A stretch of 61,750 bases of DNA, filler included, from Basidioascus undulatus (Eukaryota): the NCBI GenBank assembly GCA_000826855.1. It is 7 parts of 7 records of this genome, joined end to end, with 100 filler letters (N's around TTAATTAATTAA, not from the genome) between each part and the next. Parts side by side here need not be neighbours in the genome. Positions count along the whole stretch, not along the records: positions 53,039 to 61,750 come from JTLS01001347.1; 6 more parts are not named here. One strand, 5' to 3'. The notes under the pieces are model-generated. The model saw only the letters and a list, made by a program, of their open reading frames with translations, was not told the DNA's origin and made no database searches. Both the position numbers and the translations under genes were made by a program. Positions 3,033 through 59,437 of the stretch are shown here, in pieces. Position 1 is the first letter of the stretch, and the number at the start of each line of letters is the position of its first letter.

Positions 3033-3104
3033 TTCCCTGTCCGGGAATCCAACCCGGGGCTAGGCGCTGAGAACAACCGATGTTAGCCACTGCACCAACG
3101 AGGA
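3033..3104 (-). tRNA. Degenerate tRNA-Glu(CTC), possible pseudogene
   Basis: Minus strand TCCTCGTTGGTGCAGTGGCTAACATCGGTTGTTCTCAGCGCCTAGCCCCGGGTTGGATTCCCGGACAGGGAA folds as a 72-nt cloverleaf with A-box, CTC anticodon and downstream TTTT. It has TTG instead of TTC in the T-loop and mismatches in the acceptor and anticodon stems. Confidence 0.7.
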
Positions 3105-6874: not shown

Positions 6875-8759
6875 TTACCGACCCCACCACCCCCCGGGGT
6901 AATACGGTTCCGGCTCGGACATCGCAGCAGGCGCAGGGATATGGTCCGGCTCGTGGGCGCGGTGCTCCCCGTTCTCGAGGTCGAGAGAGTCCCGCTCGCG
7001 GCGGCTCCCGACGCTCCCGATTGTGGAGAGCTTGCGCACGAGCTTGCCGTTTGACATACGGACGTCTGCGGGTGCGTGGACGCCAGAGGTAAGCCGGAGG
7101 AAAGGTGGTATGGGTAGGGACGGGAAGGGGAAGGAAGGGGGGCGAGGAAGACGCACAGATCAGATCCTTCGGCGGCGGGGGCGGGAGCGGCTCGGGGGAG
7201 TCCGGATGCGCGTCGGCGTACGGCTCCGCATCGGGGTGCTCGTCGGGCAAGGGGGCGCGGGAGTGGTTGTGGTACGACGATGCCGTGGCGTGCCGCTCTG
7301 CCGCGGGGGCGGGCACGGCGGAGGAGGAAGAGCCCCAGCTGGAGAGCCAGTTGAGGAGGCCGCCTCCCCCTTCCTGCTCCTGCTCCGGCGACGGGGGTGT
7401 GCGCGGCAGCGTGCGATCGAGGTTAGGCGCGTCGTCGTTGTGCTCCTCGTCGAGAAGCGGGGTGCCCGCGCCTTTTTCCAACTCGCGGTCCTTCTCCTTC
7501 TCGGCGGCAGTAGCAGTGGAGGCGGAGGGAGACACCAGAGTGGCGTCCGAGGAGTGTGGTTCGGAGGGTGCGGCGGGAGGGGCGAGGCTGACGATCGCCG
7601 CCTGGCCCGAGTCGAGGAGCGCGCGGATCTCGGGCGGCGGGGAGGCGTCGCGCGGGAGGAAGGACGACGAATGGGAGAGGAGGGAGGTGAAGTGCGTTGT
7701 GGCGTGGATGAATATCGCCTGGGGGGGTAGCGAGTTCAGTCAGCGGCCGGGGCAAAGGGGGGACGGGTAAGAAAAGAAGGAAGGAGTGGGAGGAGAGGGG
7801 GACGGACCATGACGATGATAGTCACTACCAGCCGAACAGCGCTTGCGATCAAAAGTGGGCGAACGCGTCCATCGCCCGGGCACCTTCCGCTCCTCTCCCC
7901 CCAAACGACATCCACATCCACCTCACACCTCCCCACCAATCTCCGTTCCCGCACCAGCTCGCTCGGCGGCGTCGGGTCGCGCCACAGGACAGCAACGACG
8001 AGGTTGACGACTGCGACAGAGATGTGCAGCGCGAGCGCCGCGCCCTGGAGGGAGGTGTTGAGCGGCGAGTACCAGCTGCGGCGGTGTGCTAGGCGGAGGT
8101 AGGGGATGTTTAGGGTGGTGAGAAGAAGGGCGAGGAGCGTGAGGATGAGCAGTGCTAGGGAGAGGGAGTGGCGGACGGGGTCGAGGCGGAACTCTGGGGG
8201 AGACGTTGGGTGAGAGAAGTTGGATGAGCGGATCTGGCATTCTTGGGCGGGGACGGAAGGGAAGACGCACTGTAGTACGCGATCCCGTATCGGACAACGC
8301 AATAGACCGCCCACACCTAATTTCCATCTCACACCCATAAGCCTCGAATGAGAGAAACATACCACGCGGAAGGGAACGAACCTCAACAACAAGCGTGACC
8401 ACCCCCGCCCAGATCCTCCACTTCCCGACCCCCCTCCTTACCGCGCCCTTCCGCATCCTCCGCAACTCATGGACGACCGCCTCCCTCGCCGGCCCGGCGA
8501 TACCCACTCCCTTTGCCTCCCTCTCCCTGTCCCCCTCCTCCCCAGCCGCCCTGTCTTCCGCGCCCTCTCCTCCCCCTCCACCTTCTTGGTGAGAGTGCGC
8601 GGGGTGATTGGGGTGCAACGCGAGCACCCCGCCCGCATGCTCGTGCGCGTCGAGGGAGTCGGGGTCGTAAGGCAGGAGGGCGGAGAATGGGAGGGTCTCG
8701 TGTGGTTGTGGTTGGGTTGGGGGCGGGGAGGAGGAGGGAAGGGAGGGAATTGAGGGGTC
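6875..8759 (-). CDS. Hypothetical multi-pass membrane protein, 5'-truncated by contig end
   Basis: Several hydrophobic segments (WRIWAGVVTLVVE; SLSLALLILTLLALLL; AALALHISVAVVNLVVAVLW; LLIASAVRLVVTIIVM) and a Cys pair (GRCEVDVDVVW..GRC) in GT-AG exons, then a low-complexity tail ending YYPGGWWGR*. Confidence 0.55.
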
Positions 8760-8859: not shown

Positions 8860-10636
8860 CAGCCCTGTTGCTACAGCGGCCCTGTAGATACTTCCTCCCC
8901 TCACCCCCCTCCCTCCCCCACCGAGCAGACTGTTTCCAGCGCGTCCTCTCCGCGCTCCTCCTCCTCCCCCTCTGGGCGCTCTACTACTCCCTCTTCCCCC
9001 GCCCGCGGCCTTCCTGGTCCCTCTCCCAAACGCTACTCATCCGCTTCACCCGGCGCGTAAACAAGATGACCGAAGTCGCGAATCTGTGCTTCGCGACACG
9101 GGACCCCAAGTCGGAGCCCGACCCTCGCTCTCTCAAGGAAACGCAGTTTCGGTGGGTGCCCGCGCTGAGAGATGGGCTAAGGACGGGCGTGGTGAACGAC
9201 GTGGATGTTAAGCGCATGCATCCGGTGGGGGTGTACGTTTGGCCCAAGTGGGCCCCGCCGCCCAGGACGAAGGCGGACGATTTGGAGCGCGTGGAGGAGG
9301 CGCAGGAGGAGGAGGAGGGGGGTCTAGTCGGGCTATACTTCCATGGAGGGGGATACGCACATATGAGCGCACACGAAACTTCCCAGACGAGTGGTGCGTC
9401 GTCTCTTTTCCTCTCTCTCCCCGCGAGAACCCTGCCCCTTAGTCCCTTGCCCTCCCCAACAGCCATCCCCCGCCGCCTCGTCCGGTCGCGCCTCTTCCGA
9501 GAAATCCACTGTCCGTCTTTCTCTCCCCCTCCTCCTCTCCTCTCCGATCTCTCTCCTCTTTCCCCCTATTCTCCCCTTTCCTCCTTTTCCCTTTCCTTGC
9601 TTCCCATTTCCACCTTCTCCCCCCTTCTCTCTCCTATCCCTCAATCCTTCTTACCCTCTTTTTTGCTCTCCAACAGCCGTCGAGTACCGCCTCATATCCT
9701 CCGCGCCCTTCCCGGGCGCGCTCCAAGACGCGGCAGCGGTGTACGCTTCCCTAGTCGAGGTGCAGCGCGTGCCGCCCCACCGGATCGTCCTCATCGGCGA
9801 CTCCGCGGGGGGGAACCTCGCCCTCGCCCTGGCGCGCTGGGTGCGCGACGAGGGGAGGCTGGGGATGATGGGCGGGCTGCTGCTACTGTCTGTGGGACCC
9901 CTCTCTCTTCCCTCCGCTACTTCCCTTTGCTTTCTCGGAGCTGATCAACGAACGATATAAAATACAGCCATGGTGTGATCCCTGTACGTCCTCTTTTGCC
10001 TCCTCTCTTCCCTCCTCTTCCTTTTCTCCCCATCTCCCCTAATCTCTTCCCCTCCTTCCCCTCCTTCTCCCCTTTCCCCTCACTCTGACCCCCGCGCCCT
10101 ACAGCCCACTCATTCCCCTACACCCCCTCCTCGCACATCCCGCGGCCAAACTACAAGACGGACTACCTCGTCGACACGCCCGCGCCGCGCTCGCTGCTCG
10201 TGCACCGCCTGCTGGGCAAGCACCGCACGGCGGACTTTGTGCACTCGCCTTATATCTCGCCCGCTTCCCCTAGACTCTCTCAGCAGGTTGGGCGTGCGTG
10301 GTTTCTCTTTCCCCTCCCCTTTCCCTTCTCCCTTCTCCTTCCCCTTCCTTCTTCTCCTTCCTCCTTTCGCTCTTTCCATTCGCTCACGCCCACCCCAACC
10401 TAACAGTGCACCGCTCCCTACCCCGCACATTCATCTCCCTCGGCACCGCCGAGCGCCTCGAAGCCGAGATCGAAGCGCTCATTTTCGCGCTCGAGCGAGA
10501 CGCGGTCCCGCTCACGGTGCACCGCGCGCCCGACGCGCCGCACGACCCGCTCATTCTTCGCTTCTGGGATAAGAAGGTGTCGGAGGATATTTGGAAGACG
10601 GTAGGGGAGTGGTTGGAGGGTGAGATGAGCGCTTGA
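8860..10636 (+). CDS. Alpha/beta hydrolase, GDXG/HSL lipase-esterase family, 5'-truncated
   Basis: LYFHGGGY (oxyanion motif), VEYRL, FPGALQDAAAVY, IGDSAGGNLA (nucleophile elbow), LLLS|PWCD, GTAE and APHD. N-terminal hydrophobic segment and CT-rich introns. Confidence 0.9.
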
Positions 10637-10892
10637 TTGCTCCGGAGAGATAATGACTTTGATGCACGACCTTTACGGTTTATGTGGTATGAGTGTCACC
10701 TTGCCTTCATCATTGGAAATGGCTATGCGCGTGGCACAGGGGTCAATAGCGGTCCCACGGTGAGTATTTCTCGGTGTGGAGGGAAGTACAATGCAAGCCA
10801 GAGGTGACGAAAAAGACACTCTAGAGAACGCAGCTGGACAGCCCATCCGGGGCATCCCTCCGGGCAACGATCGAACGCAGTTGCCGGACACG

Positions 10893-11380
10893 CCTGCGGG
10901 GAGGGTGGATGGAAGTTAGGCCTCCGGAGAGCATCTCTGGTGGAGCATTTCCAGGTAACGGGTAAGCCCAGAGGAAGAGGATATAGGGAGCCAACGAGCG
11001 ATCCGAAGGACGTTGCAGGCGCTACGGCCAGGAGTGTAAACTACTTGGATTGGTAGCCCGTGCGGTCCGGAGAACGCACGATTGCCATACGGGGGCGGCG
11101 AGTACAAGTTTCAACAAGCGTCCTAGAGACCCAAGCATCTCGCGCAAAGAGGTTCTTGAATGGGCTTACGTGGGCGGCGACTTGCGAGAAGGGTAGTCTG
11201 CGGAGAGGGTAGTGAGCTACGGCACGGGTGTTTAGTAGCGACTCCGTGGAGCTGATCGTGTCGGTAGGATCCTCATAAAAAAAGAGAGAGGATATTGGGT
11301 TGTTGTTTTTGTGGGGAAAGGAGAAGGAGAGTCACGAAGGCCGGCAAGTGAGCGAGTGGCGAGAGTGGGTGCGGGTGCTG
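10893..11380 (-). ncRNA. Candidate structured non-coding element, copy X (homologous to 55290-56310)
   Basis: Shares collinear islands with copy Y, including an identical 28-mer at 11053-11080. Several C(YNCG)G hairpins on the minus strand. No convincing ORF. Strand is inferred from the tetraloops and splice-like signals. Confidence 0.45.
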
Positions 11381-12145
11381 GACGACTGGAATGTGCGGAA
11401 CGCTTAGCTTGGACTGAGACTGAGAACGAGGCGCAGTGTTTGTAAAGAGTCGAGTACGTCAAAATTTTAACGAGTAGATAAGATGGTTGCCTGTCATAGT
11501 AACTCTCTGAGAAAACAACCTGCGCTGTCGGTACGAGACACGGAGGCCCCAAGGCCGTCACCCTGTCGCGGCTCAGACCTTCAAAGCCCTTTCTGGAAGA
11601 CCTCCCTGTCTTCCTCTTGTGTGGATATGGCGCTTTTGGATCCGATTGACTACGATCATTGGAATGTGATCGATAAAGGCAGTCCGTCGTGTGTGAATCC
11701 CTCGGAAACGTCCGCACCTCCCAGAGCCATTTTCAGACCAGAAAATACACTACTGTAACTAGTGGGGGAGAGGAAAGCAGACAAAGATTTAAGCATGTAT
11801 GTACTCAAGGTAAGAAACTAACCGTTGATACCCACTATGTAGTGACCTTTGTGAAGTTCTGACTTCGAAGGACGGCTGTCCTAATATCACGAACTCCTCT
11901 CCTCGCATTGTCAGGCTCCCTGCAGAGCCACATTCGCCTCCTTTACTTGATCCACCTGGAAATGAATCGACCGCATACGATTAGATCGGCTGAAGCGAAC
12001 AGGCTGGAGAGCCTTTCAAAACGCGATGCGAACAAAGCTCATGTCTGCAGCACAACCGTCCACATTAAACTCACTCAGAAGACACCGAGCAGCCATGTCC
12101 TTTCCGAGCATAGATAGTTGGAGTTCTAATCCAGATCTTTCCGCC

Positions 12146-13118
12146 TCACGAGATGCTTCTCTCCTTGCTATCCACCGACACCGCATCCTCGACGTCCGAC
12201 TCCTTCCCTTGCACGCCGCCCTGGTGGTCCTCGGCGTCCTCGTTGAAGTCAGACAAAGCCACCAAAACACCTCCTCTCAAGGTCTACTGACAGCTTCCGC
12301 AGCCCAGAAGAACCCAGCTCTGTGAAGATAGGCAAGAGTCAGCGCGATGGGATGGGCCCGACGGCAGCTGCAGAAGGCCTTACGAGATTCCGCAGAACGC
12401 AGAGCCAAACAGCATGAACCACGTCGTGGAGCTCTTGTTCTGTAGGTTGTCGTCAGCAAAACCTTCTTGTTCAGCTTGAATGTCGGATATTGGGTGCACA
12501 TTGGTGTACAGGCCAGCACCGTACAAGGGGTAACCGATTGTTCCGAGCTGTTGTCCGACCACAAGTGAGCCGATGAACGCACTACTTCGAGCGGTTGGGC
12601 GAAAGACGTACCGCCAACGCGTATGTGAGACCAATCTTGTTGATCATACCGCCCGCGCATATGCAAAAGATCTGTAGGACGCTGTTGAGCGGCAACACCA
12701 TGCGCAGTCGCGACGCATTCCAGACGTACAACCATGAGGCCATACACAAGTGCATCTGCGGAAAAGGGTTTAAGTAAGATTTTACATTTGTTATACTGCG
12801 CATAGCGCAGAAAGAAGGCTCACTAGCTGCGCTGACGGCGTACGGCTCCGCCGCACCTCCTGCTCCCAGCTGCCCTCGAGACGTCAATCCCGGTCTTTGG
12901 GCGGCGCTTCAGCAAGAGAAACCTACCCCGCCCAAGGCATCCCACATTCCCGGTGCGCATACCGAGACCAGCCCGGCCAGAAGGATCTGAAAGGATTCAA
13001 TGTAAGCTCGAACTTGCAGATCGCTGGAAGTCGATGGATGATTTGCCTGGAACGGCACACTCCTGAACCAGCTGCCCCTTCTCACCACTAATTTCTCATT
13101 GGCAATAGAAGCGGTCAT
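12146..13118 (-). CDS. UNC-93-like MFS transporter, internally truncated (about 4 TM), possible pseudogene
   Basis: Spliced: MTASIANEK...ILLAGLVSVCAPGMWDALGG|LGAGGAAEPYAVSAA|NAFVYGLMV|FCICAGGMINKIGLTYALA|LGTIGYPLYGAGLYTN|NKSSTTWFMLFGSAFCGIS|AGFFWAAEA, then straight into an acidic tail DAEDHQGG...KERSIS*. Confidence 0.7.
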
Positions 13119-13788
13119 TTTCAATAGAGGAGAAGAGAGCCAAGATGGTCAGTAGCCCGAATTGGAAGACCCGAAAATTGGCGGCTAAATGAGTGGAAGA
13201 GCAGCTTTGCGGATCGGAAGGAGCGAGCACGACATCGTTGAACGGTGCCGGTAGCATAGTGATACCACAAAGTGAAGAAAAAGATGAAAATAAGTTGATG
13301 TATCAGAAATCATCGTAAGACATCGGCTGTGGAGACGGGCTACCGACGGCTGCGCATGGTGCCCCGCTACGGGCCCTCAGGGCGTAAGAATGCGAGCTTC
13401 GCATCGAGTACAGTGAAATTCATCGACAGCAGCCACTCGGGGGTTTTCTTTCTTGTTTGTATTTAGATTGAAGAATATCTGCCGGGCGGAGGCATACGTG
13501 TGACTGACGGCCTATGAGAATATGGTGTGACTCGTGGCGGGCAATCAGCGCGTTGCGCGCCGACATGATGCTGGTGTCATTCATCAGGTCTGAAATGTTC
13601 GCTTGCGTTATCTTTTTTTTAGCGAGCTACATGTAATAATAAGGACGGGCTATTTGACGTCGAAGGCACAAAACAGCTTCCTCAAGCAAGCTGCAAGAAC
13701 GGCGAACGCAGCGCCTGAGAACGAATCCTCCGAGCTCGTTTACTCCTCAGCGGTTAGATAATAGGCAGAGACTGGTCAGCAAGCCGTA

Positions 13789-19279: not shown

Positions 19280-20399
19280 GCCGTCTGGATCGAAAGAAGG
19301 CTGAGCGGTTTCGACGTTTAATGAGCTCGGGACGACGACCTAGTAGTGAAGATGGTGGTGGGAGGCAAGGACGGGAGTCAAGGATCATTGGTGCCGCGGT
19401 GGGAGCTTTCGAGGCGTAATGAGTCCCACAAAGTTTCGGATGTTAATTGCTTGATGGAGATCAAATAATACATTTGTATTATTTGGACCTAGGTCAATCT
19501 CTGCGAAATTGGTAATTCTCAACAGCTATGACTACAACGTCGAGGACTCAATGAGGACAGTTCTTCCTTCATTTCTTGTTCACGAGACTTTGTTCGACTT
19601 GCTTCAATCCTGATATAAGGGCTTTGAACGAGAACTTGTAATGAGTGTAAAGTTACCTCAGACGAGAGCAATGCTATACCCACAGTAGATGTACGCAGTC
19701 ATGCATCCGATAGTTCGGTCGCTACTGAGCCCATGCATCCTTTCACAACTTCAAGTTGAAGATCAATACTCCAAATCTAGAGCCTCCAAAGATCTCTAAC
19801 CGACCCAGCCTTGAATTTCCTGGTGGGCGGACGGGATCTTGTGCATTATCGCAGCGCTTTGGCGTTTCAGGCTCTCCACCGGTCCTTTGCTTTCTCGCCG
19901 TTACCTTCAAGCGTCCATCGCTTTCTTCCCTCATATGACTCTCCCATGCTTCCCCACAAACGACGCACTATGGAGTCCGATCCCCATCCCACTTCCTCGA
20001 TCGTAACGGCGACTCCCACCTCTGCCGGTTTCACCGGATCCTCCCCCACCATCAAGCCCACCAAAGCCATCAAATAGCTCGTCTCGGCCTCATACCCGAG
20101 CTGGTCGTCGAAGCTCTCCGGACGCACCTCGTTCCGGCGCTATCCACATCCGACGCGTCCAATGTCGTCCAGATCCTGAACGCCGCGAAGGCGAAGTACG
20201 GATCTCAGGCGAAAGCCGATATGGTGCAGGAGGTTTATGAGAAATACTCCAAGAGCCTGGAGACGCAGCTCAAGGATTTGGAGAAGGACATTGGGGCGAA
20301 CGGCAGAGAGGGCTGAGAAGAGCAGTGAGCCTGATACGCCGAGTTGATCTCAGAGCTTCAACGCGGAAACCGCTCCCCTGGATTTGGTGGATAGGAGAG

Positions 20400-21210
20400 A
20401 TTATGCGCTCTATTGTGGAGGAAATCTGGACTGGTTATCCACGTTTTCGACATGGGCATCGAGTCCGACGGCGACCTCTCCCTCGTGTACTACAGCCTGT
20501 CGTTCTGTGCGGGCGAAGCAGGGATGGGAAGAGCAGGTGCGCCTTGATAGGCTGACCTTTAGCCCCAGAAAGTTAGAGTCTCACAGGGAGAGATGATGAG
20601 CTCGATCGCAGACGAAATATCGGAGTGGCTGTCCACGCTCTTCGCATCGTTGTCGAGTCCGACGCAGACCTCGCGCTCGTTCACTCCAGCTTGTCATTCT
20701 GCGTAGACGCCGTCGAGAGTCTCCACAGCAGCGACAGCCGGTAACCCCACCATCTTCCAATCATCTTTGGTCAGCCCGACTGAGCTGTCTTCCGCGCGCT
20801 CCCCAGCACGCCGTTCGAGGACATGGTTAGCGGTTTCGAGATCAAGAGCTCGGCCAGCGAGCGCGTCTACGGTCCTACCGGCTTCTCGAACCAGACCACC
20901 TGCTTCTACCGGGAGAGCGTCCTGGCCGCCCTCGCCCGCGGTACCGATGTCGAGGTCGTCCGGAGCGTTGTCTCCGGCAAGGACGCCGAGTCGCTGAGAC
21001 TGAGAGACGAGGGCGGGGGTACGTCCGCGCGCATCGTTTTCCGGGGTGCACCTTTGGCAAGAGGAAATTTTCTGACAGAGATGTGTTTTTCCAGGGAAGG
21101 ATTCAGAATGGGAGGAGTTCTTCGATGAGTGGTGGACGGACGACATCAAAGCTGCCGTTCCTCGTATGCGCAGTCTCCTCGCGTCGACCGGCGTCGCGAC
21201 TTCTTGAGGA
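20400..21210 (+). pseudogene. Decayed coding remnants with a diverged internal duplication
   Basis: Two similar peptides (VIHVFDMGIESDGDLSLVYYSLSFC and AVHALRIVVESDADLALVHSSLSFC), in-frame stops, one GTACGT..CAG intron, ending ...LLASTGVATS*. Confidence 0.35.
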
Positions 21211-21988: not shown

Positions 21989-24900
21989 ATGTACGCACTG
22001 CCCGCGCTGCTGCTCCGGCTGAGCCCGCTGACCTGAGCGCTGCTGCCGCAGGGACGGCGCGCCTCCGCCCGAGGAGGACTTCTCGCAGATTCCCCTTCCG
22101 GATCGGATAGCGCACTCTGTGCGTTCCTTCTCCAGTTACTATGCAGATTCCACGCTCACTTGAGCGCCTCCACGCTGGCCGCAGAACTGGAAAGCCCGTG
22201 TCTCAGCGTACACCGAACTCGTCGCCGCCTTCCAGCGCTCCTCGTCCGACGACGACCCCGTCTTCCGACAATGGCTCTCCAACACGGACATGCTCAAGAA
22301 GGCCGTGACGGACTCGAACGCGGCTGCGCAGGAGAAGGGGCTCGAGATGGTGTGCACGCTCGTACGCGAGGCGGGCACGAACGCGGCGAGGTGCGTGGAT
22401 GGCTAGGGAGATAGCCCTGGGAAGAAGGCTCACGGGGTTGGCGTGCAGGTTGAGGGAGGACATCGTCAAGCCGGCCATTGAGAAAGGGTTGGGCGCGGCG
22501 CGGGCGGGAACCAAGACTAAGGCGCTCGAGCTCGCGCTGCTGTTTGTGGAGGTAGAAGGCCAGGCGGACGGGGTCGCGGTGCGTTTAATGTCTCTTCCTG
22601 GGCCGGGTGGAAATGCTCATGCAGATCGGAGGATGCAGGCGACGATCTTGGAGTCGTTGGGAGCGAAGCAGCCGAAGCTTGTCGCGGGCTGCGTGACTGG
22701 CTTGAAGGAGATTATCCGGTGCGTGGCTGTGGGCCGAACAGGATCGAAATTGAAACAGCTGATGCGCTCCATTCTTGCAGGCAATTTGGACTTCGCACGC
22801 TGTCCAATTCGAAACCGCTGCTCAAAGCGCTGCCCAAGATCTTCTCTCATACGGACAAGACCGTCCGCTCTGAGGTACCTTGCCTATGAATACCTCCATG
22901 CTTTCTCCTCAAACTCCATCCTCACCATGCGCTCCAAACCCCAGGGCACGCTGCTCGTCCAAAATCTCTACACCTACCTAGGCTCCGCGCTCCTCCCGCT
23001 CCTCGAGGAGCTCAAGCCCGTGCAGGTCAAGGAGCTGCAGGAGAGCTTCGCGAAGATGGACGGCGAGGGAAAGGGCGCGGGGACGGGCGCGCAGACGCGA
23101 TTCACGCGCGCGCAGCTGGTTGAGAAGGCGGCGGCCGAGGCGGCGGGCGTGGAGGCGGAGGCGGAAGGTGCGTTGAAACCGGCCTGGCTGTTCGAGGTGG
23201 TTCAACTTGGACGACTGACAGAGGGTCTTCGGACGTGCAGCGGACGGGCCGATCGAGCTCGACTTCGACCCCGCGGACGACATCCCGCCTGTGGACGTGC
23301 TCTCGAACCTGCACCCGGACTTCTACGGCATGCTCGAGTCCAAGAAGTGGCAAGAGCGGAAGGAGGTGGTCGACGCGCTGCTCGAGACGCTCAAGAAGGC
23401 GCCGCGCGTCGAGCCGGGCGCGGACTACTCGACCGTCCTCGGCGCGCTCGCGAAGCGCATCTCCGAGACAAACATCAACGTCGTCATCGCTGCCGCGCAG
23501 GCGATCGAGGGCATCGCCAAGGGCCTCCGGACTGAGTTCGGGAAGCACAAGGGCACGGTTATGCACCCCCTCATGGACCGCTTGAAGGAGCGCAAGCAGA
23601 ACGTCACAGACGCGCTTGGGGCAGCTTTGGACGCGGTCTTCGCTTCGGTACGTCTGTTTTCCATTCCCCATGCCGCTTGGCGATCTGTGCTGAAACGCTG
23701 TGCTGGACAGGTTCCCTTTGCCGAAGTCACCGAAGACATTGTCTCCTACTCGTCGAACAAGAACCCGCAAGTCAAGACGGGCACGCTGCTCTTCGCGGTC
23801 CGCGCGCTGCGGACGACGCGCGAGGCGCCCTCTCCGAAGGACGTCAAGCCCCTCGCGGACGCGTTCGCGGCCACGCTCGCGGACACGTTCGAGCCCGTGC
23901 GGACGGCGGGCGCGGAGGCGCTCGGCACGCTCATGAAGATTGTGGGCGAGCGCGCGATGAACCCCATCATGGAGGGCATGGACGCCGTCAGGAAGGGCAA
24001 GGTCATGGAGTTCTATGAGAAGGCGCAGGTCAAGGCGAAGGCGGGCGCCCCTAAACCGGCACAGCCTAAGGCGGCGCCCCCACCGAAGGCGGCTCCCCCG
24101 AAGAAGGTGAGGGTGCTCCCGTAACCTTTTGGGGTCCCATGTCTCGTAACATAACATTAATGATACGCTTTCACCTGGTGCAGAAACACGCCACTCCCCC
24201 CGCCCCTTCGCCCTCGGCTGCGTCGCCTCCGCAAGAACCAGAAGACGTTCTCTCGGCTAGCGCGATGCAGTCTCCGAAGCGTGGACCGCCTGCTCGCCTA
24301 CTCGTACGACTCGCCCTTCTTCATTTTATCCGCCCCAGCGTGGCTGATATCATTTACGGGTTACAGGCCAGGAAAGCCGCAGCCTCGCCGCCGAAAGACG
24401 AGAACAACCAGCCGGAGGCTGACGCGCTGTCGTCGGCTGCCGCGATGGAACCGCCCAAGAGGGGTCTGCCTGCTCGACTTCTGGTGCGTATGGACTGTTT
24501 TACAAGAAAAGTGATGGACGTTGCTGAACTTCAAATACTCGCAGGCCAAGAAACCGCCTGCCGCCGCGGGCGGTTCTCCAGCGGCTGCCCCGCCAGCAGC
24601 CGCGAAGAAGCCTGCGCCGTCGGCAGCAGCCATAGCCGCCGCGTCCGCGAAGCCGAAAGGCGGCGCATCCGCGCCGGCCGAGCCGATCCGGTACCGCTTC
24701 TCGTCCGAGGACGCAGAGGCGCAGGCGCATGAGCTCGTGCCTGCCGGTCTGCCCGCCGCGCTCGAGGATTCTAACTGGAAAGCGCGTCTGCAGGGCATGG
24801 AGGACTTCACAGCGTGGCTTGAGGGCGGCGCGGTCGACACCGCCGAGGCGGAGGTGCTCGTTCGGTTCTTAGGCAAGCGGCCGGGGTGGAACGAGAAAAA

Positions 24901-42100: not shown

Positions 42101-42253
42101 CTGGTGGTGAAGCGTTCCGGACGTGTCGACAATGCATGTGCCAAGTGCTTTTCATGTGCTCGAAGCTTAGAGTTATCTGGTGGTTAAGCGTTCCGGAAGG
42201 GTCGACAATGCATGTGCGAAGTGCTTCTCATGTGCTCGAAGCTTAAGAATTAT
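42101..42253. repeat. Two-copy tandem duplication of about 76 bp
   Basis: CTGGTGGT(G/T)AAGCGTTCCGGA...CATGTGCTCGAAGCTTA..TTAT at 42101 and 42177. Confidence 0.85.
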
Positions 42254-42361
42254 CGCTCATCACGTCCCGCCTTCAAAAGCTACGCTGCGCCTTCGACGAG
42301 GAACATCGATCGCTTAACACCCACTTCACTTAACATCGAAGGCACGCAGAAGTTCAACCAA

Positions 42362-48550: not shown

Positions 48551-49237
48551 GCCAGTGCGTTGAGTGAGTCATGCATGTCCGTAGCAGGGTGTGTCCTGAC
48601 GCAGGGATGGTTGGCAAGACTGACCGCATTGTGCATCGTAAACATTCCTTCCTCCATTTTGGGGACGCTGTTGGTTGTTTACGGACTTCATGTATACGCA
48701 CTCGCTTGACTACCAATCTTTGCCACTCTGTATTCCGTGCACTTGAATCAGCCTGGACCGGCAGACTTTTGTCTCCCTATGCTGCAGAGTGACATGGTAC
48801 GAGGTACCAGCCAACGTCGTCCCAGCAGAGTACATACACAGTTCAATGTGTTACTCTGCTCAGATCTTTCCTGCCAACCAGAGCACGGCGAAAAATGAGC
48901 GGACTGCTGCCCATTGGAACCTTCTCTTGCTTCAAGGCCATATGTCAACGGCTCCAGCTCGGTCACCCTCCTGTCGATTTCTCGGCCAATAGAGCTATTA
49001 GACAAGCCATTCAGAGGAAAGTTCGACGCCTGACAAAAATAAACGAACCGGACAAAACTTTCGAGAACAATGCAACACTGATGATGGTTAACCCGATACT
49101 GTCCAGGAGCCGCCGCCTCAAGCCTTTGGTGTTGTCAGTTCTGCCTGGTACAGTGACTCAAGTGCAAGAAGAGATCTGGTCAGGCAAAGGAAAAGCTGGG
49201 ATGGCTGCGGGGCAAAAAGAACTAAAAGTTCAAGATA

Positions 49238-49329
49238 CGACCAGAGCAGGATTTGAACCTACGCGGGCAGAGCCCATGAGATGTCAAAGGCATTCGAGTC
49301 TCACGCCTTAACCGCTCGGCCATCTGGTC
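49238..49329 (-). tRNA. tRNA-Ser(CGA) with an intron of about 10 nt
   Basis: GACCAGATGGCCGAGCGGTTAAGGCGTGAGACTCGAA[TGCCTTTGAC]ATCTCATGGGCTCTGCCCGCGTAGGTTCAAATCCTGCTCTGGTCG: intron at 37/38, long variable arm, G discriminator. Confidence 0.93.
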
Positions 49330-50191
49330 ATATGTGACAGATATTCTTTTATGTATCGACTAGCGCGCACCAAATTTACAATACCTGACCACCCTGTGCC
49401 TTCTTCGACCAGATAGTAACCCTAGAACACTATTTCTCCCGAATAAAGGTTATCGTACTAAGGGAAAGTCACCTTTCCCAGAAGTGTGACTGACGATCTC
49501 AACAGGCTTGCCTGAAAGTTGATGTGCTTTGAGTGAGCAGGAGTTCAATATTCCTGTGGTGCATTCACTACCGTGAAACGTTATTTCACGAAAGCGGCAG
49601 TATATGATTGCCGCACTTAAGAAGCGTGGTAGAGTGATAGGTTCTCTTTAATTCATGAACCTCAAAGTCCAACAAATGCACAGGGGTGAATGCATGTCGT
49701 AAGTTACAAGGCAGTTTGATCGGAATACACAGAAAAGGTTCAGTATGCGATATAAAAGATGTATCAAATGGGACTGGACATAGAGTACAATTTGCGGTCT
49801 GCTTGCCAACGTGCAACCTCGAACGCTCGGGCTGTGGGCTGCATCGTTCTGCCCTGCAACGTGACACTTTAGGTTTTGTGCTTGCATTATGAATACCATG
49901 CCGCCGAACTTGCCATGGAAGCATTATTCTATCCCACCCCTACAGATGAATTGTCAGTTTGATTGCAGGTGTAGTCTTCACCACAAAGCCCTGGGTTGCG
50001 GTGAGAGTCCTCTGTTCATTGTAACGGCGCGCACGACGGATTTTCTCCATCTGTGAGATGGACTGGGGAAATTAGCCTCTGCTCCTCTTGTCCCCCATAA
50101 CACAGCCGAGCCGTCATGAGCAACTATTCGCAGTCCAACAAACTTCCCGCACACAGCTCACCACCTGAATCAACAGCGCCGCGCCCACCTC

Positions 50192-53038: not shown

Positions 53039-53197
53039 CTGCGGCGGGGGGCGTGGCGTTCGGGGCGGGCGCGGCGATCGTACGTTCTTCCCTCCATCTC
53101 ACTCTTTTGCACTCTTTCGCCCGATGACCCCAGTTTTACATGAACTGACCGACGTGTGGGGATAAAGGGCGGCGGAATCATCAACGCCATCTTCTGA
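53039..53197 (+). CDS. C-terminus of an Lsb1/Pin3-like SH3 protein, 5'-truncated
   Basis: AAGGVAFGAGAAI|GGGIINAIF* across intron 53080-53167; resembles the FGAG..G..I.N.IF C-terminus of the Pin3/Lsb1 family. The SH3 domain itself is not in the window. Confidence 0.65.
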
Positions 53198-53885
53198 TTG
53201 CCTTCCGTGCGCACACTTCCATCGCTCGTTCGCTCTCTTCTACCCCTCCAGCGCTTCTCACACTCGCTCGCGATCGGTTCACTTGGGAACGCACAGGATA
53301 CCCCACGCTCATTCGCTTCCGCATCTCTCGCACCCGCCCGCTCGTTCGTTCTCGTTTCCGGTGCCATCCCGTCTGACATGCTCCCTTTCTCTCTCTCCGC
53401 CCTCCGACCGTCCTCGTCGCCGCCGTGCTTTCCCTTCTTGTGCGGTGCTGGTTCGGAGGGGCAATGGACAGTTCCCATCTCATCTAATCCGCTCGTTCCC
53501 TTCGTTCCGTTTCGTTCAGTTTCAGTTTACTCGCTTTCCTCGTCTAGTTCACTCCTCTCCTGCCCGTATCGTACTTTGTTGGGGACAGGCGCATACACGC
53601 TCATTGCTCTTGCTCTTTGCTCTTTATACTTCGCTTCGCTGGCGCTGGGATAGCTGGGTTGTGTACTTCCCTGAGTTGGGCGGGTCGTGCTGAATGGAAG
53701 ACGCAACCGCACAGAAGGGCAGGGTGCCGGTCACCAGGGGAAGTTCCAAGATTCAAGCAGCGCATGCATGCCATGCAGTTCCGCTTCTCTTTCCTCGGCT
53801 CGTCTGCCTGGGATTCTGTCTGTCTCGCACTGCGCAATACTCGATCCTCGATCCGTGCTCACCCAATATTTGTCCTATCACTTAT

Positions 53886-53905
53886 ACACACACACACACA
53901 CACAC
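53886..53905. repeat. (AC)10 microsatellite
   Basis: Direct reading. Confidence 0.9.
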
Positions 53906-55289
53906 TTGCCTTCCGTGTGACTGAGCACCACGGAGATCAGCGCCGTCCTCTCGCCTCTTGGTTCGACCTAGTCACGGCGCGCATTAGGCATTGCACGACC
54001 GCACGAGGCTGTATCGGCTGCCGGTACAGGCTCAGAAGCAAGCACTTCCTTACCTCTTCCCTGGATTACGTTCAAGGTGGTTTCACGCCAGGCTCTACGG
54101 AGAATTTGGCGGGCTGGTATCTAAAGCCTGGCTGGAGCGGTGTTGCTGTCGCAGTGCGGCGTCTTCTCGCGCTGGGAGTCGTTTGATCTTCTTCAGTGGA
54201 GTCAGGGTGGAACGGTACCCCACAAGTGGCGTTTTACAAACGACGGGCATTATATACACCATCACAATAGAATGGCACTTTGTGCGATCTTCATGAATGG
54301 GGGACACCGTGCACTGCGGACAGACAGGCAGATCTATCGGTCTCTCTTTACCGGTTAAACGCAAGCTCTAAGGGCACAATCTAGTACGAGATCATTGGGG
54401 ATTATCAGTCTTCAGTTCCCATTGGTAGCAAACCTCTCGTGCCGGCGGCATAGACGACGAAAGCGCGCAACTCAGCCAACCCTTCCCCAACGCAATGCTG
54501 CCGCTGCGCCTCTGCCCCTGATCCAAGCACCAGACGCCATCTGGAAGAGGCAAAACTTCTGAAGCCAGAAGGAAGCTGTCCACTATCTCTACATGTCGTT
54601 GCAACTCGGCGAAAATGAGGTTCTCCCACCTAGTTGAGGCATTGAGAAACTTTCGGTGGCCGCGGTCGGTCAGTCTGCAAGGTGCAGTGCGGCGGCTTCG
54701 TACGCTAGCGTAGACGTACTGAGTTCAATTTTCCTAGATCCCTAGGTTATACAATATACGTCGCGAAGAAAGTGGACGGAACGCGCACGGAATGCGGCTC
54801 GAGGAGTGCGGATGGTCGCTGCGGAAAAGAATCACTTGCTCGCACACCCAGCGCGAAGTCGTTTATCGGAACTAGGAGATCATGCACATGGGATATGGAC
54901 TACATGTGTTCTACTGAAAATGCAGACAAAAAAGGAAAACATGGCACTACCAGTACGTCTGTCGTTCGCTTCCACCCTCCCGCATTCCCCCAGCCTCTCC
55001 CCCTTTAGGGTCCCTCTCCCACCGCGCCTCACTTATCCTCCTCCTCCATCTCTTCTACTCCTCCTCTTCCCACTCCCGGTCATTGCAAAGCCTCCTCAAC
55101 GTCGCCTGAGCCCGCGAGTGGAACCCGTCCACCTCGCCCTCCCTCCACAGCCGGTCGCGCTCCTACTTCATCTATTTCGACGATATCGAGGCAATTACCT
55201 CCACCGAGCTGATAACAAGTTACTAAGAAGCACGCCGTTCAGGCAAGCTCACTTCGTCCGACGTCCCGAGCAGGCTGGGACAAGAGAAA

Positions 55290-56310
55290 AACGGCTCACC
55301 AAGCATTTCCAACCCCGGGAATTCCCGACGGTAAGGGGTTCTCTCGGACCGACGACATGCACGACAACAACGAACTTCCACGACATAAAACATGCCCGAT
55401 GTCTGCGGACAGGATCCAAACGCACGACCGACCCACACGACCGACCCACACGGCACAGGCGTCCAACACAAAGGACCGACAAACAGCCACAGACCCAAAA
55501 GGACGGTCAGGCACAAATACCGGGAACAAGTGTAGCCCGTGCGGTCCGGAGAACGCACGGGCTCAGGAAGAGCAGGAGTTCGCCGGCAGGCTGCGAGCAA
55601 TCTCGAGTGATTCGACGGGAAGGAGGGGTGGGAAGGGACTGTATAGCCTGGGTACTTCAGTGGGGTACCTCGGTAGAGTCCGTGTGATATTAGGGAAAGA
55701 CACAAAGGCCACGAGTCCTTGATTCTGAAAAAAGAACTGGAGGACTTTAAGGAGGATCACGCGAGCTTACGGCGCAATGAGAATGGGAATAAAAAGAGGA
55801 ATGTGAGCTTATCGGAGGTTCTTCAGCGACCTAAGGGCTTGCCGAAAGGGGGCCTGCCGAAAGGGTTGCTCCGCAGAGTGACGGTACGTGGAGTGTACCC
55901 CATAATGTTTGATGAAAGACCGGGGGACTCGGGTGCTTGAGGCTGAGGGGAAGGGGGAAAGGTGGTGGTCGAGAAGGAGATGGGCGCTGAGGAACGACCG
56001 AGACGACCGCAGCCCGTGTGCCCCGGAGGAGCACACGGTCTTGGGGAACAATAAAAGAGGGGATACGAGACGAACCAGAGTTTATCGGAGATCGGCGAGT
56101 GACTTGCGAGCTTGCGAGCTTGCCGAAAGGGACCTGTGAAGAAGGTAGCTCCGTAGAGTGGTACGCGTTAGTGGGAGCTCCGTGGAGCTCGATGATTGGA
56201 GCGGGGGTTGGCGTCGGGAAGAGTAGGGGTTAATAAAGATGTGGGGATGGAGATGGAGCGGAGAGCAAGAGTGGTGAGCGAGCGAGAGAGTGGCGGGTGC
56301 GGGTGCGGAT
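55290..56310 (-). ncRNA. Candidate structured non-coding element, copy Y, with internal duplicated module
   Basis: Array of CTC-YNCG-GAG hairpins, two copies of an ~80-nt module, two related long hairpins, and islands shared with copy X. No credible ORF. Confidence 0.5.
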
Positions 56311-57206
56311 ACAGGTGAGGCTCGTGAATGTGCCTCGGCGCAACTGGCACAAGGACGCCTGCATAGTTCTCGCATTGATAATGCATATCGATTGTATATT
56401 TCCTCTGAGAGAATCCGGTATAACTGGTAAAAACAGAACAGCGACAAGCCCAAGTGGGCAGGTAGGCAGACAGCGGGAACGCATAGCAGCACCAATGGGC
56501 AAGGGCACACAACGACGGATTTAACAAACCTCTCAGTCAATGATTCACCACATGAGATATCTCTCTAACCATGCGCCTTCCGAACGAGCTCGCTCTCTCG
56601 ACCCTCAACCTCGTCTGCAGTATGCGACGCTTTCCCAGAAAGCGTGGCGGTCCCGGCCGTTCCTGCCGGCTTAGCAGCATCTCCAGACAATGATCTCTGC
56701 GAAAGTTTCCCTGAAAAACTGTCATATCAACGTGTATGATTCAGGTGCAGCAAGACTTGCTTCGCGCGCTGCCTTTTGTGAGCCCAGCGAGCTTGCTTCC
56801 TCCGCCTGCCCGCTGTCTCCCAGCTGCATCACATTCGGCCGTTCGCAGTTGCAACGTGTCGGCTATCAAGGCCTATCAACGCCACCGACTGTGCAACACA
56901 GCTGCTCTGAGTTGGGCGAGGTGGACAACAAAGCCCCATCGTACAACGCAACTCAAGTCAGTCCTAGAAGACTGGCGAGTCGGGTGCAGGCCCAAACAAA
57001 CGGCGACCAAGGCATCGATCAAAAGCTTCTCATTTCATTTCTATTATGCGGTGACGCCCGCGCCCACGGCGGGGTCCGGTACAATGTGGTGCGACAACGA
57101 ACAGAACAGGTGGATTTCAAACGAGTACGAGCAAGAAGGAAGAGCAACAAAGGCAAGAACAGGAGACAGGGATCCACCGCTGCCTCCTGGAAGCTGGTGC
57201 GGGCGC

Positions 57207-59437
57207 TTAAGCCTGTGGGTGGCGGAGTATCTCGTCAGCAGGTGCGGAAGAGGGAAGGGAGAGGAGGGATGATGGGGGAGGCAAACGGACCTTGTTCTTG
57301 AACATCTCGTTGATCGCGCGCGAGCTGTACGACTTGGGGCGCTCGAGGGGCATACCGAGGGCGCGGTCCTGTTCGCCGTCCATCGCATAACGTTAGATGT
57401 CAGTATCGAACGAGAGCGGGGTGAGAGAAGCAGGGAAGAGGGAGGGAACGGCTACGCACCCAGAGGAGCTGGGCACCGACACCGAGCGCGCGGGAGACAC
57501 CGAAGAGGACGGTGTAGAACGACTGCTGGTCTGTTGTGCGGGGAGACGGAGTCAGTTGGAGGTGAACTCGGCGATGAGAAAGTGGGAAGTGGGTGAGGAG
57601 AGGGAGGGAAGAGAGGGACGCACTGAAGCCGTAGTGGGTGAGGAGGACGCCGGAGTGAGCGTCGACGTTGGGCCAGGGGTTCTTGGCCTTGCCAGCCTCC
57701 AGAAGGACACCGGGGACGATGTTGTAAATCTGGTTAACGAGCTTGAAGAGCTTGTCGTCCTTGAGGTGCTTGAGCGCGAACTCGCGCTGGGCGGTGTAGC
57801 GCGGGTCGGTCTTGCGGAGGACGGCGTGGCCGTAGCCGGGGACGACGCGGCCTGACTTGAGGGTGGACCAAACGTACTCGCGCACTTGGTCGTCCGTCGC
57901 GTCCTCGCCGATCTTGGACCGCATCTCGAGCAGCCAGTTCAGGACCTCCTGGTTCGCCAGCCCGTGCAACGGGCCCGCGAGACCATTCAGCGCGGCGGAG
58001 AAGGAGAGGAACGGGTCGGAGAGCGCCGAGCCGACCAGGTGGCCCGTGTGCGCGGAGACGTTGCCACCCTCGTGGTCACTGCGAGCGAAGCGAGACAAGA
58101 ACGAAGCGAGCGCAGAACGAGGTCAGTCGGTTGAAGGAACTGGGAAGGGAGGGGGATGGGGAGGGGAGGTGAAGACGCACGAGTGGATGGTGAGGTAGAG
58201 GCGCATGAGCTCGACAAACTCCTTGTTCTCGCCGTAGCCGAGGAGGGTGGCGAGGTTGTGCGAGTAGTCCTTGTTGAGGTCGATCTGCTCGTGCTTGCCC
58301 TCGCCGAAGACGTTCTGGTAGATGCGGCCGGCGACGGTGGGGAGCTTGGCTAGAACCCGAGGAAAGAACGCAGTTCAGCGAATGCGCGGGAGAGACGGCG
58401 GTTCGGGAAACGCACCGATGAGGTCCTGGACGTCCTCGAAGGTCGGGTCCCAGTAGAGCTTCTTGTTGACGCCCTCCTGGTACGCCTTGGCGAACGCGGA
58501 GTCGTGGTTAAGCTGTCCGTCGATCTCCCCCAGCGTCAGCCCATTGCTCTTCCGGTAAAGAAACTAACTGAAAGAGGCAGAGGGAAGAGAAGAGTAAGGG
58601 AGAAAGAACGCACAGCAGTGACGGCGAGCGAGAACTGGCTCATGGGGTGGAGGGTCTTGGGGCACGAGTCGATGAGCTCCTCGACGAACTTGGGGATCTT
58701 CGCGCGCGCAGCCCAGTCCTCGGAGAGGCCCTTGACCTGCTCAGCGGTGGGCACCTCGCCCGTGACGAGGAGCCAGAAGAGCGCCTCGGGGAGCGGCTCG
58801 GAACCACCGGGGGCGGCAGGGAGCTTCTCCTGGCACTCGGCTGATCGCCACCAAGAGAAGAATGTCAGTATCGGCGGTGGGACGGGAATGAGGGGGAGAG
58901 GGGACGCACGGATGGTCAGGCCACGGAAGCGGATGCCCTCGTCTGATGGGATGAGCGAGTGTGGAACGTCAGCGGCGTTCGCGCTTCACCGATGAGAGGA
59001 GCCACTCACCGGCGTCAAGGACAGAGCCCTCCCAGACGAGGCCCTTGATGCCGCGCATGCCGCCGTAGGCCTGGTCGACGGTGACCTCGCCGAACGACTT
59101 GTGGCCGTGGTCGGCGCGGACCTTCTTGACCTGTCCTCGTCCCCATCGCGTATCAGCGCGATCTTTCAGGGAAGGAGAGGGAGGGACGACGCACAAACTC
59201 CTGCTCCTGGGGGATGAGCTCCGCAAAGCGCTCCTTGAGCGTCTGGGGCTTGCCCGAGGCGTACGAGCGCGCTTGGATGGAGGCGAGGCGGGAGGCCTTG
59301 TTCTGTGGTAGCGGGGGAAGGAGGAAGACGCAGCATCAGCGTCAGCGGCCCGCGCCCTCGAGACGGAGCATAGCTAGACTACGCTATGAAGAATAATGAT
59401 GAATTACAGTGTGGCGGGCAACGGCGCGGAAGACCAT
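57207..59437 (-). CDS. CIT1: Mitochondrial citrate synthase
   Basis: Presequence [106 protein letters not shown]; last coding exon GCTTAA. Confidence 0.97.

Follow-up and report, generated by a model that had tools for sequence, protein, structure and literature searches.

The window, by which is meant the whole stretch of 61,750 nt of Basidioascus undulatus DNA that was analysed, consists of seven contigs of ~8.7 kb with runs of N between them, and the character of its DNA is eukaryotic and fungus-like. Two loci, X on contig 2 and Y on contig 7, share an intergenic element that occurs once in X and twice, in tandem, in Y. Its components are listed in Table 1, together with the neighbouring genes and the tRNAs of the window.

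Table 1. Positions of the repeat loci, their modules and other features of the window (CM, covariance model of the hairpin)
Feature	Position	Strand	Remarks
X, as first delimited	10893-11380		contig 2 (8860-17612)
X hairpin core (H)	11053-11080		28-mer identical to Y1; folding context 11051-11087; CM 48.9 bits
X modules B-C	11177-11396		CTTGCGAG / GGTAG..CTCCG..GAG motifs, palindrome CTCCGTGGAG, GA-rich tail ending in GGGTGCGGGTGC
Y	55290-56310		contig 7 (53039-61750)
Two leftmost islands in Y (AGCATTTCCA, ACGGTAAG)	55302-55335		left-flank local alignment, 44/300 shuffles; probably outside the repeat
Stretch covered by run X3, including H1	55413-55608		196-nt contig, letter-for-letter identity
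Y1 hairpin core (H1)	55532-55559		hairpin proper ~55531-55565; CM 55.6 bits
Y1 modules B1-C1	55788-55974		diverged tandem copy of B2-C2
Y2 hairpin (H2)	56011-56041		loop of H1, stem kept via paired changes; CM 47.6 bits
Y2 modules B2-C2	56050-56335		counterpart of X B-C; contains palindromic hairpin GAGCTCCGTGGAGCTC (56175-56190)
Alpha/beta-hydrolase gene	Pfam Abhydrolase_3 in 9367-9957; last open frame ends 10636	plus	left of X
Citrate synthase gene	~57020-59330	minus	Pfam PF00285, E 2e-52
tRNA Glu(CTC)	3033-3104	minus	ARAGORN only
tRNA Leu(AAG)	26563-26642	minus	tRNA gene
94-nt tRNA	49237-49330	minus	odd ARAGORN anticodon call, Rfam 49.5 bits; probably intron-containing

Y lies ~700 nt past position 57020, the mapped end of the cover of the minus-strand citrate synthase gene, the exons of which have a GC3 of ~0.9. 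Contigs of three coded runs (X1, X2 and X3) were compared with 54600-57400, and the full stretch is present in runs X1 and X2, from which the window may derive. In the 3' part of citrate synthase, one contig of run X3, unlike X1 and X2, skips 78 nt at ~57211-57290 (CT..AC on the plus strand, which is GT..AG on the minus strand). The skipped stretch is probably the last intron of the gene, and 57020, where X3 cover stops, is probably the approximate 3' end of the mRNA. Directly left of Y is a short open frame, 55111-55226, with a GC3 of 0.8-0.95 and 13 bits in a codon scan. As both its plus-strand frame (ending in ...SYFIYFDDIEAITSTELITSY and a stop) and a minus-strand frame carry GC3 periodicity, its strand and coding status are ambiguous. 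On contig 2, X begins 417 nt downstream of the stop of the plus-strand hydrolase gene.

The GC content of X and Y resembles that of their surroundings. Both loci are purine-rich on the plus strand (0.6-0.7), whereas in this DNA pyrimidines prevail on the sense strand of known introns and 3' regions. The 3-4 kb around each repeat locus (53039-57020 and 10640-13700) contain no Pfam domain, with ORFs scanned up to 13500, and no strong codon-bias signal. Because several other contigs have similar long stretches, these regions may hold weakly biased genes rather than being gene deserts.

Homology and modular organisation of X and Y

Aligned locally with gaps, X (10800-11500) and Y (55200-56450) score 74.5, whereas 100 dinucleotide shuffles average 29.8 (sd 3.5, maximum 40) and the best of 194 segment/strand comparisons in the rest of the window, which served as natural controls, scores 39. 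Since the score exceeds both the shuffles and the natural controls, the homology of the two loci is real and specific. BLASTN of contig 2 against contig 7 returns a 28-mer as its sole match (E 1.4e-7, ungapped). The flanks of X and Y show no paralogy in tblastx.

The best gapped path, which departs from the pairing proposed in the first-pass annotation, pairs X 11005-11397 with Y 55973-56334 and so resolves Y into two tandem modules, Y1 and Y2. The 28-mer links X to Y1, and the other significant islands, which lie to its right, link X to Y2. The repeating unit measures ~350-380 bp, with one copy in X and two in Y (H1-B1-C1-H2-B2-C2), and is composed of a GC-rich hairpin (H), a block (B) that contains a small palindrome and short motifs that recur, and a purine-rich tail (C) with GGGTGC repeats at its end. 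Within the B block, GGTAGCTCCGTAGAG-like motifs recur four times and GCTTGCCGAAAGGG three times. None of 300 shuffles attains the local alignment score of the hairpins of X and Y1 (56), of X B-C with Y2 B-C at 56106-56333 (71.5) or of Y1 B-C (55788-55974) with Y2 B-C at 56050-56253 (63), and the tandem duplication within Y is plain. The alignment of X B-C with Y1 B-C is not significant (score 30.5, reached by 24/300 shuffles). Profile searches with nhmmer give the same picture, with an E of 3.7e-9 for Y1 against Y2, an E of 6.3e-5 over ~330 nt for Y2 against X, and a match of Y1 to X that is restricted to the hairpin. There is, in consequence, an asymmetry between the loci, in that the hairpin of X is that of H1 whereas the B-C part of X resembles B2-C2. 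One explanation is that complementary parts were retained once Y had undergone its duplication; another is an ancestral two-module element of which X would have lost the interior B1-C1-H2. The latter history is a neutral account of the asymmetry, but it leaves the 28/28 identity of the hairpin cores unexplained.

The resemblance of X and Y had been described in the first-pass annotation as six short islands, conserved in the same order on two unrelated contigs and separated by unalignable spacers, a pattern that was taken to fit selection better than neutral decay. All six island pairs are present on the plus strand at the coordinates reported for them, and within the window each island sequence is confined to its two places, except for reverse-complement AGCATTTCCA at 22608 and ACGGGTAAG at 7763. 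The homology and the unrelated flanks have stood up, whereas the pairs themselves mix islands of the Y1 and Y2 modules. The two leftmost islands (AGCATTTCCA and ACGG(G)TAAG) are at chance level, the left-flank score of 22 being reached by 44/300 shuffles, and a perfect 12-nt palindrome, CGGGAATTCCCG, lies between them in Y at 55316-55327 and is missing from X. Islands GACTTGCGAG and GGGTGCGGGTGC fall in micro tandem repeats of 8 nt and 6 nt in Y. The spacers from B to C do align (X 11177-11396 with Y 56106-56333, 0/300 shuffles). The contrast between conserved islands and variable spacers was accordingly overstated, with the spacing inflated by the internal duplication of Y, two islands at chance and two in simple repeats; islands in the same order can, in the case of X and Y, result from module duplication and simple repeats.

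The idea that two purine-rich, low-complexity intergenic regions resemble each other by chance retains a negligible probability, which it owes to the two leftmost islands, to the right flank (local alignment score 21.5, reached by 73/300 shuffles) and to the two simple-repeat islands. For H and B-C it is refuted, as 0/100 and 0/300 shuffles reach the observed scores, the best natural control stays at little more than half the score of X/Y, and the 28-mer has the E value given above.

Decay of the element was simulated as uniform substitution with indels, starting from X, in three settings of 300 runs each. The longest identical run reached 28 nt or more at frequencies of 0.003, 0 and 0, and two runs of at least 12 nt at frequencies of 0.14, 0.023 and 0.003. 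Among the islands, the 28-mer alone clearly exceeds uniform decay. Its identity between X and Y1 is 28/28, whereas roughly 60% of bases match elsewhere in the element, and this is the sole observation that neutral decay fails to explain.

Coding potential and RNA structure

X and Y lack a coding signal, as the first-pass annotation had supposed, in that no frame-consistent conservation, codon bias, domain or homologue was found at either locus. GC3 periodicity is absent in both, compared with a GC3 of ~0.9 in real exons here. On the minus strand, X and Y score 12-21 bits in a codon log-odds scan for which clear exons were the training set; CT-rich introns score the same, and real exons 33-134 bits. 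In tblastx, X and Y match each other in all frames, with stops in part of the matches. Pfam searches of 67 ORFs around both loci produced matches in one ORF only, that of the hydrolase gene to the left of X, led by Abhydrolase_3. Protein searches with two minus-strand ORFs of Y were likewise empty, with 106 word candidates and none at E<=1 for 55226-55756, and no match among 1.84 billion representatives for 55834-56229. A pheromone precursor (a small ORF of the CAAX type) was considered as a candidate and dropped, as none is common to X and Y.

The islands might still mark short exons, or the borders of exons and introns, in a family of spliced protein-coding genes that has escaped recognition. 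By eye, 5' splice-site motifs resembling GTAAG and CAG|GTGAGG can be made out at two islands on the plus strand, and the spacer between GGGTGCGGGTGC and GAATGTGC differs between X and Y by 9 nt, a multiple of three. Nevertheless, the differences at the other two island spacings are 14 and 8 nt, and the all-frame similarity with stops, the intron-level codon scores, the missing periodicity and the empty domain and homologue searches all weigh against coding exons. This reading is very improbable and close to refuted.

With respect to known RNA families, a search of the whole window with Rfam 15 yielded two tRNAs, both outside X and Y, and nothing else at gathering score. The best that X and Y offered was one chance-level match each, with E values of 8.4 and 3.4 and scores of 15.9 bits against the 60 required and 17.2 against 47, in agreement with the first-pass annotation, which could match the loci to none of several common RNAs. 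A tRNA-like head of SINE type with A and B boxes was sought in X/Y by ARAGORN and Rfam tRNA, and none was found. C/D and H/ACA snoRNAs, Pol III A/B boxes, a PBS-like tRNA complement and an introner-like element were dropped as candidates by eye, the box spacing, the terminal stems or a host gene being missing. In comparison with the snRNA, snoRNA, RNase P/MRP, SRP, riboswitch and ribozyme families of Rfam, X and Y share the non-coding nature only.

The first-pass annotation had further proposed that the islands belong to a structured non-coding RNA, a reading that is supported only for one hairpin. The ~370-nt modules, folded singly, do no better than shuffles, with z-scores of -1.81 and -1.20 on the plus strand and -0.65 and -1.29 on the minus strand. 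The consensus fold of X and Y2, set against 200 column-shuffled alignments, has z -0.53 on the plus strand (equalled by 55/200) and -1.43 on the minus strand (15/200). Structure is kept in hairpin H, which is present in 3/3 modules and folds well on either strand. H1 has a 10-bp stem, a 1x1 internal loop (G/A), a further 2 bp and the loop CGGA, which ViennaRNA predicts as a tetraloop closed by C-G. Its folding energy is -22.2 kcal/mol (z -4.33) on the plus strand and -24.0 kcal/mol (z -5.79) on the minus strand, with -19.7 and -22.2 kcal/mol for H2. The hairpin of X, in which the outer stem is re-registered, folds at -15.1 kcal/mol (z -1.97) on the plus strand and -15.7 kcal/mol on the minus strand. 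The palindromic hairpin GAGCTCCGTGGAGCTC of the Y2 B block folds at -9.4 kcal/mol with z -2.0.

The apex CCGGAG is invariant in all three hairpins. H1 and H2 are separated by eight differences in alignment, among which are two paired changes, one from C-G to U-A in the lower stem and one from U-A to C-G in the 2-bp apical stem, as read from the predicted folds. In addition, a pair is gained through a G-to-C change together with an inserted G, while another change disrupts a pair and a further one lies beyond the stem. In the three sequences, 86.7% of cells are paired in the given structure and one pair is changed on both sides, a result reached by 178/500 shuffles. A covariance model of the hairpin, run on the window, matched its three training hairpins, and the best other site scored 15.3 bits (E 0.087). 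Paired changes in palindromes can arise without selection, by templated (quasipalindrome) mutation. The predicted retention of the H2 stem through paired changes fits a present-day function.

Copies, transcription and origin of the repeat

The suggestion of a multi-copy family, made when two copies were in hand, is borne out by at least one more locus of this genome, which matches 56157-56189. This third locus lies on separate contigs of runs X1 and X2 (11.9 and 15.7 kb), which match the B palindrome at 30/33 positions, with a chance expectation of ~4e-4 by uniform-model arithmetic. There is possibly a fourth locus, on another contig in X1 and in X2, which matches 56294-56317 at 23/24 positions; it is marginal because the matched part includes the hexamer repeat. 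The near-identical patches differ from pair to pair, with H shared by X and Y1, the B palindrome by Y2 and the third locus, and the end of C by Y2 and the fourth locus. By analogy, such a pattern is a mosaic like that of repeat subfamilies or ectopic exchange. Within the 61 kb there are three modules at two loci, and neither an nhmmer profile of the modules nor the hairpin model found a copy in the other five contigs. Copies beyond the genome were not apparent either. Metagenome matches to a degenerate pattern of the hairpin, at nine loci of which five were one sequence, lay in GC-rich, bacteria-like contexts with no BLASTN similarity outside the pattern, and were set aside as chance. A literature search for the 28-mer sequence found no paper containing it, and a keyword search found no paper on such an element in the material it reached.

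There is a hint that parts of the repeat family are transcribed. The 78-nt skip in citrate synthase, seen in X3 alone, suggests that this run is cDNA-like. In addition to the stretch that includes H1, its contigs comprise one that is identical to 55008-55233 and one of 321 nt from the third locus around the B palindrome. As these contigs give no strand, ends or level, their cover is a hint of transcription only, and the stretches of Y that X3 leaves uncovered were given no weight.

Such cover counts in favour of a family of non-coding RNAs, each transcribed independently and at low abundance, or of non-coding exons, where constraint would act on a putative protein-binding H and a few short motifs while the rest drifts, as in many lncRNAs. 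This is possible, if doubtful. The retention of H in every module with its invariant apex and two compensatory pairs between H1 and H2 speaks for such a family, as does the fact that H is frozen in X and Y1 while the flanks have diverged. Moreover, the purine-rich plus strand gives the loci a composition like that of non-coding sequence transcribed from the minus strand. Against it stand the chance-level consensus structure and the unexceptional folding of whole modules; covariation drawn from three sequences, which shuffles often reach and which templated mutation could mimic; the label of run X3 ('DNA?') and its contigs without strand, ends or level; and the lack of an Rfam family. The tandem duplication and slippage repeats of Y also suggest little constraint. 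In a narrower form of the argument, the hairpin would be a functional RNA element and a predicted site for an RNA-binding protein in a few weakly expressed non-coding transcripts or 3' regions, with H1 frozen and H2 compensated after the duplication in Y; this is unlikely.

The element may alternatively be a cis-acting module at the 3' ends of plus-strand genes, serving either as a 3'UTR or termination hairpin with a C-N-G-G apex for a SAM-domain protein of the Vts1/Smaug type, or as a DNA palindrome for a transcription factor. Smaug/Vts1 recognition elements are hairpins whose stem carries a CNGG(N0-3) loop, and a SAM-domain protein binds them. Hairpin H shares with them the stem-loop, the invariant apex with C-C-G-G and a place downstream of open frames on the plus strand, as X follows the hydrolase stop and H1 lies ~306 nt past the end of the GC3-rich frame 55111-55226. 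The X3 contigs over 55008-55233 and 55413-55608 cover both this frame and H1, and A-rich, AATAAA-like motifs can be seen by eye ~200-230 nt past H on the plus strand in X and Y1. However, Smaug/Vts1 elements are defined by loop and shape and not by a 28-nt stem, and the predicted loop of H is CGGA, closed by C-G, in place of one of the CNGG kind. The binding of a regulator to the loop would leave the 28-nt stem identity unexplained, and Y2, B and C would be without a role. Furthermore, the frame 55111-55226 is of uncertain strand and coding status, with its 13 bits and a minus frame that shares its GC3, and a purine-rich sense strand would contrast with the 3' region of citrate synthase and the introns, which are pyrimidine-rich. 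A 3' module of this kind is decidedly unlikely.

Since the homology is confined to the element and the flanks are unrelated, X and Y can be read as copies of a dispersed repeat. At least three homologous copies with unrelated flanks, as in interspersed repeats, are provided by X, Y1, Y2 and the third locus. The copies are tentatively regarded as an old, dispersed, non-coding repeat, possibly a relic spread by a mobile element or by recombination, in which the hairpin is a constrained core and putative protein recognition site; this reading, the most likely of those considered, comes close to being probable without quite reaching it. Either ectopic recombination or the transposition of an element that is itself non-autonomous would have scattered the copies, which would later have decayed by substitution, slippage (the micro tandem repeats) and unequal exchange. 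The internal tandem duplication of Y and its micro tandem repeats are signs of unconstrained drift, and the lack of a coding signal, of global RNA structure and of an Rfam match also speaks for this reading. The hairpin would stay constrained as the past or present recognition site of a protein, perhaps the enzyme responsible for mobilising the element, perhaps a DNA- or RNA-binding protein of the host. On this account, the islands would be functional sites conserved among source copies or subfamilies, and not parts of a folded RNA.

The TSD and TIR pattern of an ordinary transposon, which had been proposed as a check on the nature of the element, was not found. No terminal inverted repeats are common to X and Y, and the inverted pairs that span either locus have imperfect arms of 14-24 nt, 71-93% complementary, none of which recurs at the other locus. 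TSD candidates (6-mers) occur at chance rate, with 14 in X and 6 in Y against ~14 and 4.5 expected, and no TG..CA ends with a 5-bp TSD are present in the boundary zones searched in X and Y. These tests of termini and TSDs are weak, and old copies are compatible with them, because the boundaries of the element are fuzzy. The Pfam search of 67 ORFs surrounding X and Y revealed neither a transposon protein nor an autonomous partner. The points against a repeat relic are the missing TIR/TSD and transposon proteins, a GC content like that of the surroundings, the 28/28 identity, the paired changes in H2 and the X3 cover of H1 and of B at the third locus.

Among known systems, fungal non-autonomous repeats (MITE-like elements, solo LTRs and unclassified repeats) are, like X and Y, several hundred bp long, non-coding, dispersed, mosaic, internally duplicated and intergenic. 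X and Y differ from them in lacking TIRs, TG..CA ends, TSDs beyond the chance rate and any transposase or retroelement protein in the window, and in the far better preservation of one 28-nt core. Helitrons have variable interiors and end in a 3' hairpin that is followed within ~12 nt by a CTRR 3' terminus. The likeness to Helitron termini consists in a GC-rich palindromic hairpin that is the best conserved part amid heterogeneous surroundings, and tandem arrays of ends are known for Helitrons. Nevertheless, none of the hairpins of X, Y1 and Y2 has CTRR in the ~10-12 nt that follow it, whichever strand is read, and there is no identifiable 5' TC terminus, so that the copies fall outside the Helitron definition. 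Bacterial REP/BIME elements, which are of interest as an analogy only, are likewise short conserved palindromic hairpins in variable intergenic mosaics, often between convergent genes. They are, however, prokaryotic, much shorter and far more numerous, whereas X and Y are eukaryotic, with a spliced citrate synthase nearby.

If the element is only a decayed dispersed repeat, its value lies mainly in the repeat annotation of this genome. Should the hairpin instead function in binding a protein, a new and easily testable family of cis-elements would have come to light in a poorly studied fungal lineage.

Other repeats are present elsewhere in the window. On contig 5, 40091-41336 and 42476-43960 are joined by collinear weak direct matches (72-80% over 40-69 nt), ~2.4-2.6 kb apart, over coding-like segments of the plus strand, which from the sequence look like a tandem duplication of a gene with later divergence. 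At 42101-42254, two tandem copies of a 77-78-nt unit are 91% identical, and the end of contig 5 (44005-44090) passes from a long C run through a run of ~45 T to an A-rich tract, a low-complexity stretch that probably broke the assembly. On contig 3, a direct repeat of ~115 nt with 76% identity links 20394-20507 and 20587-20701, 193 nt apart.
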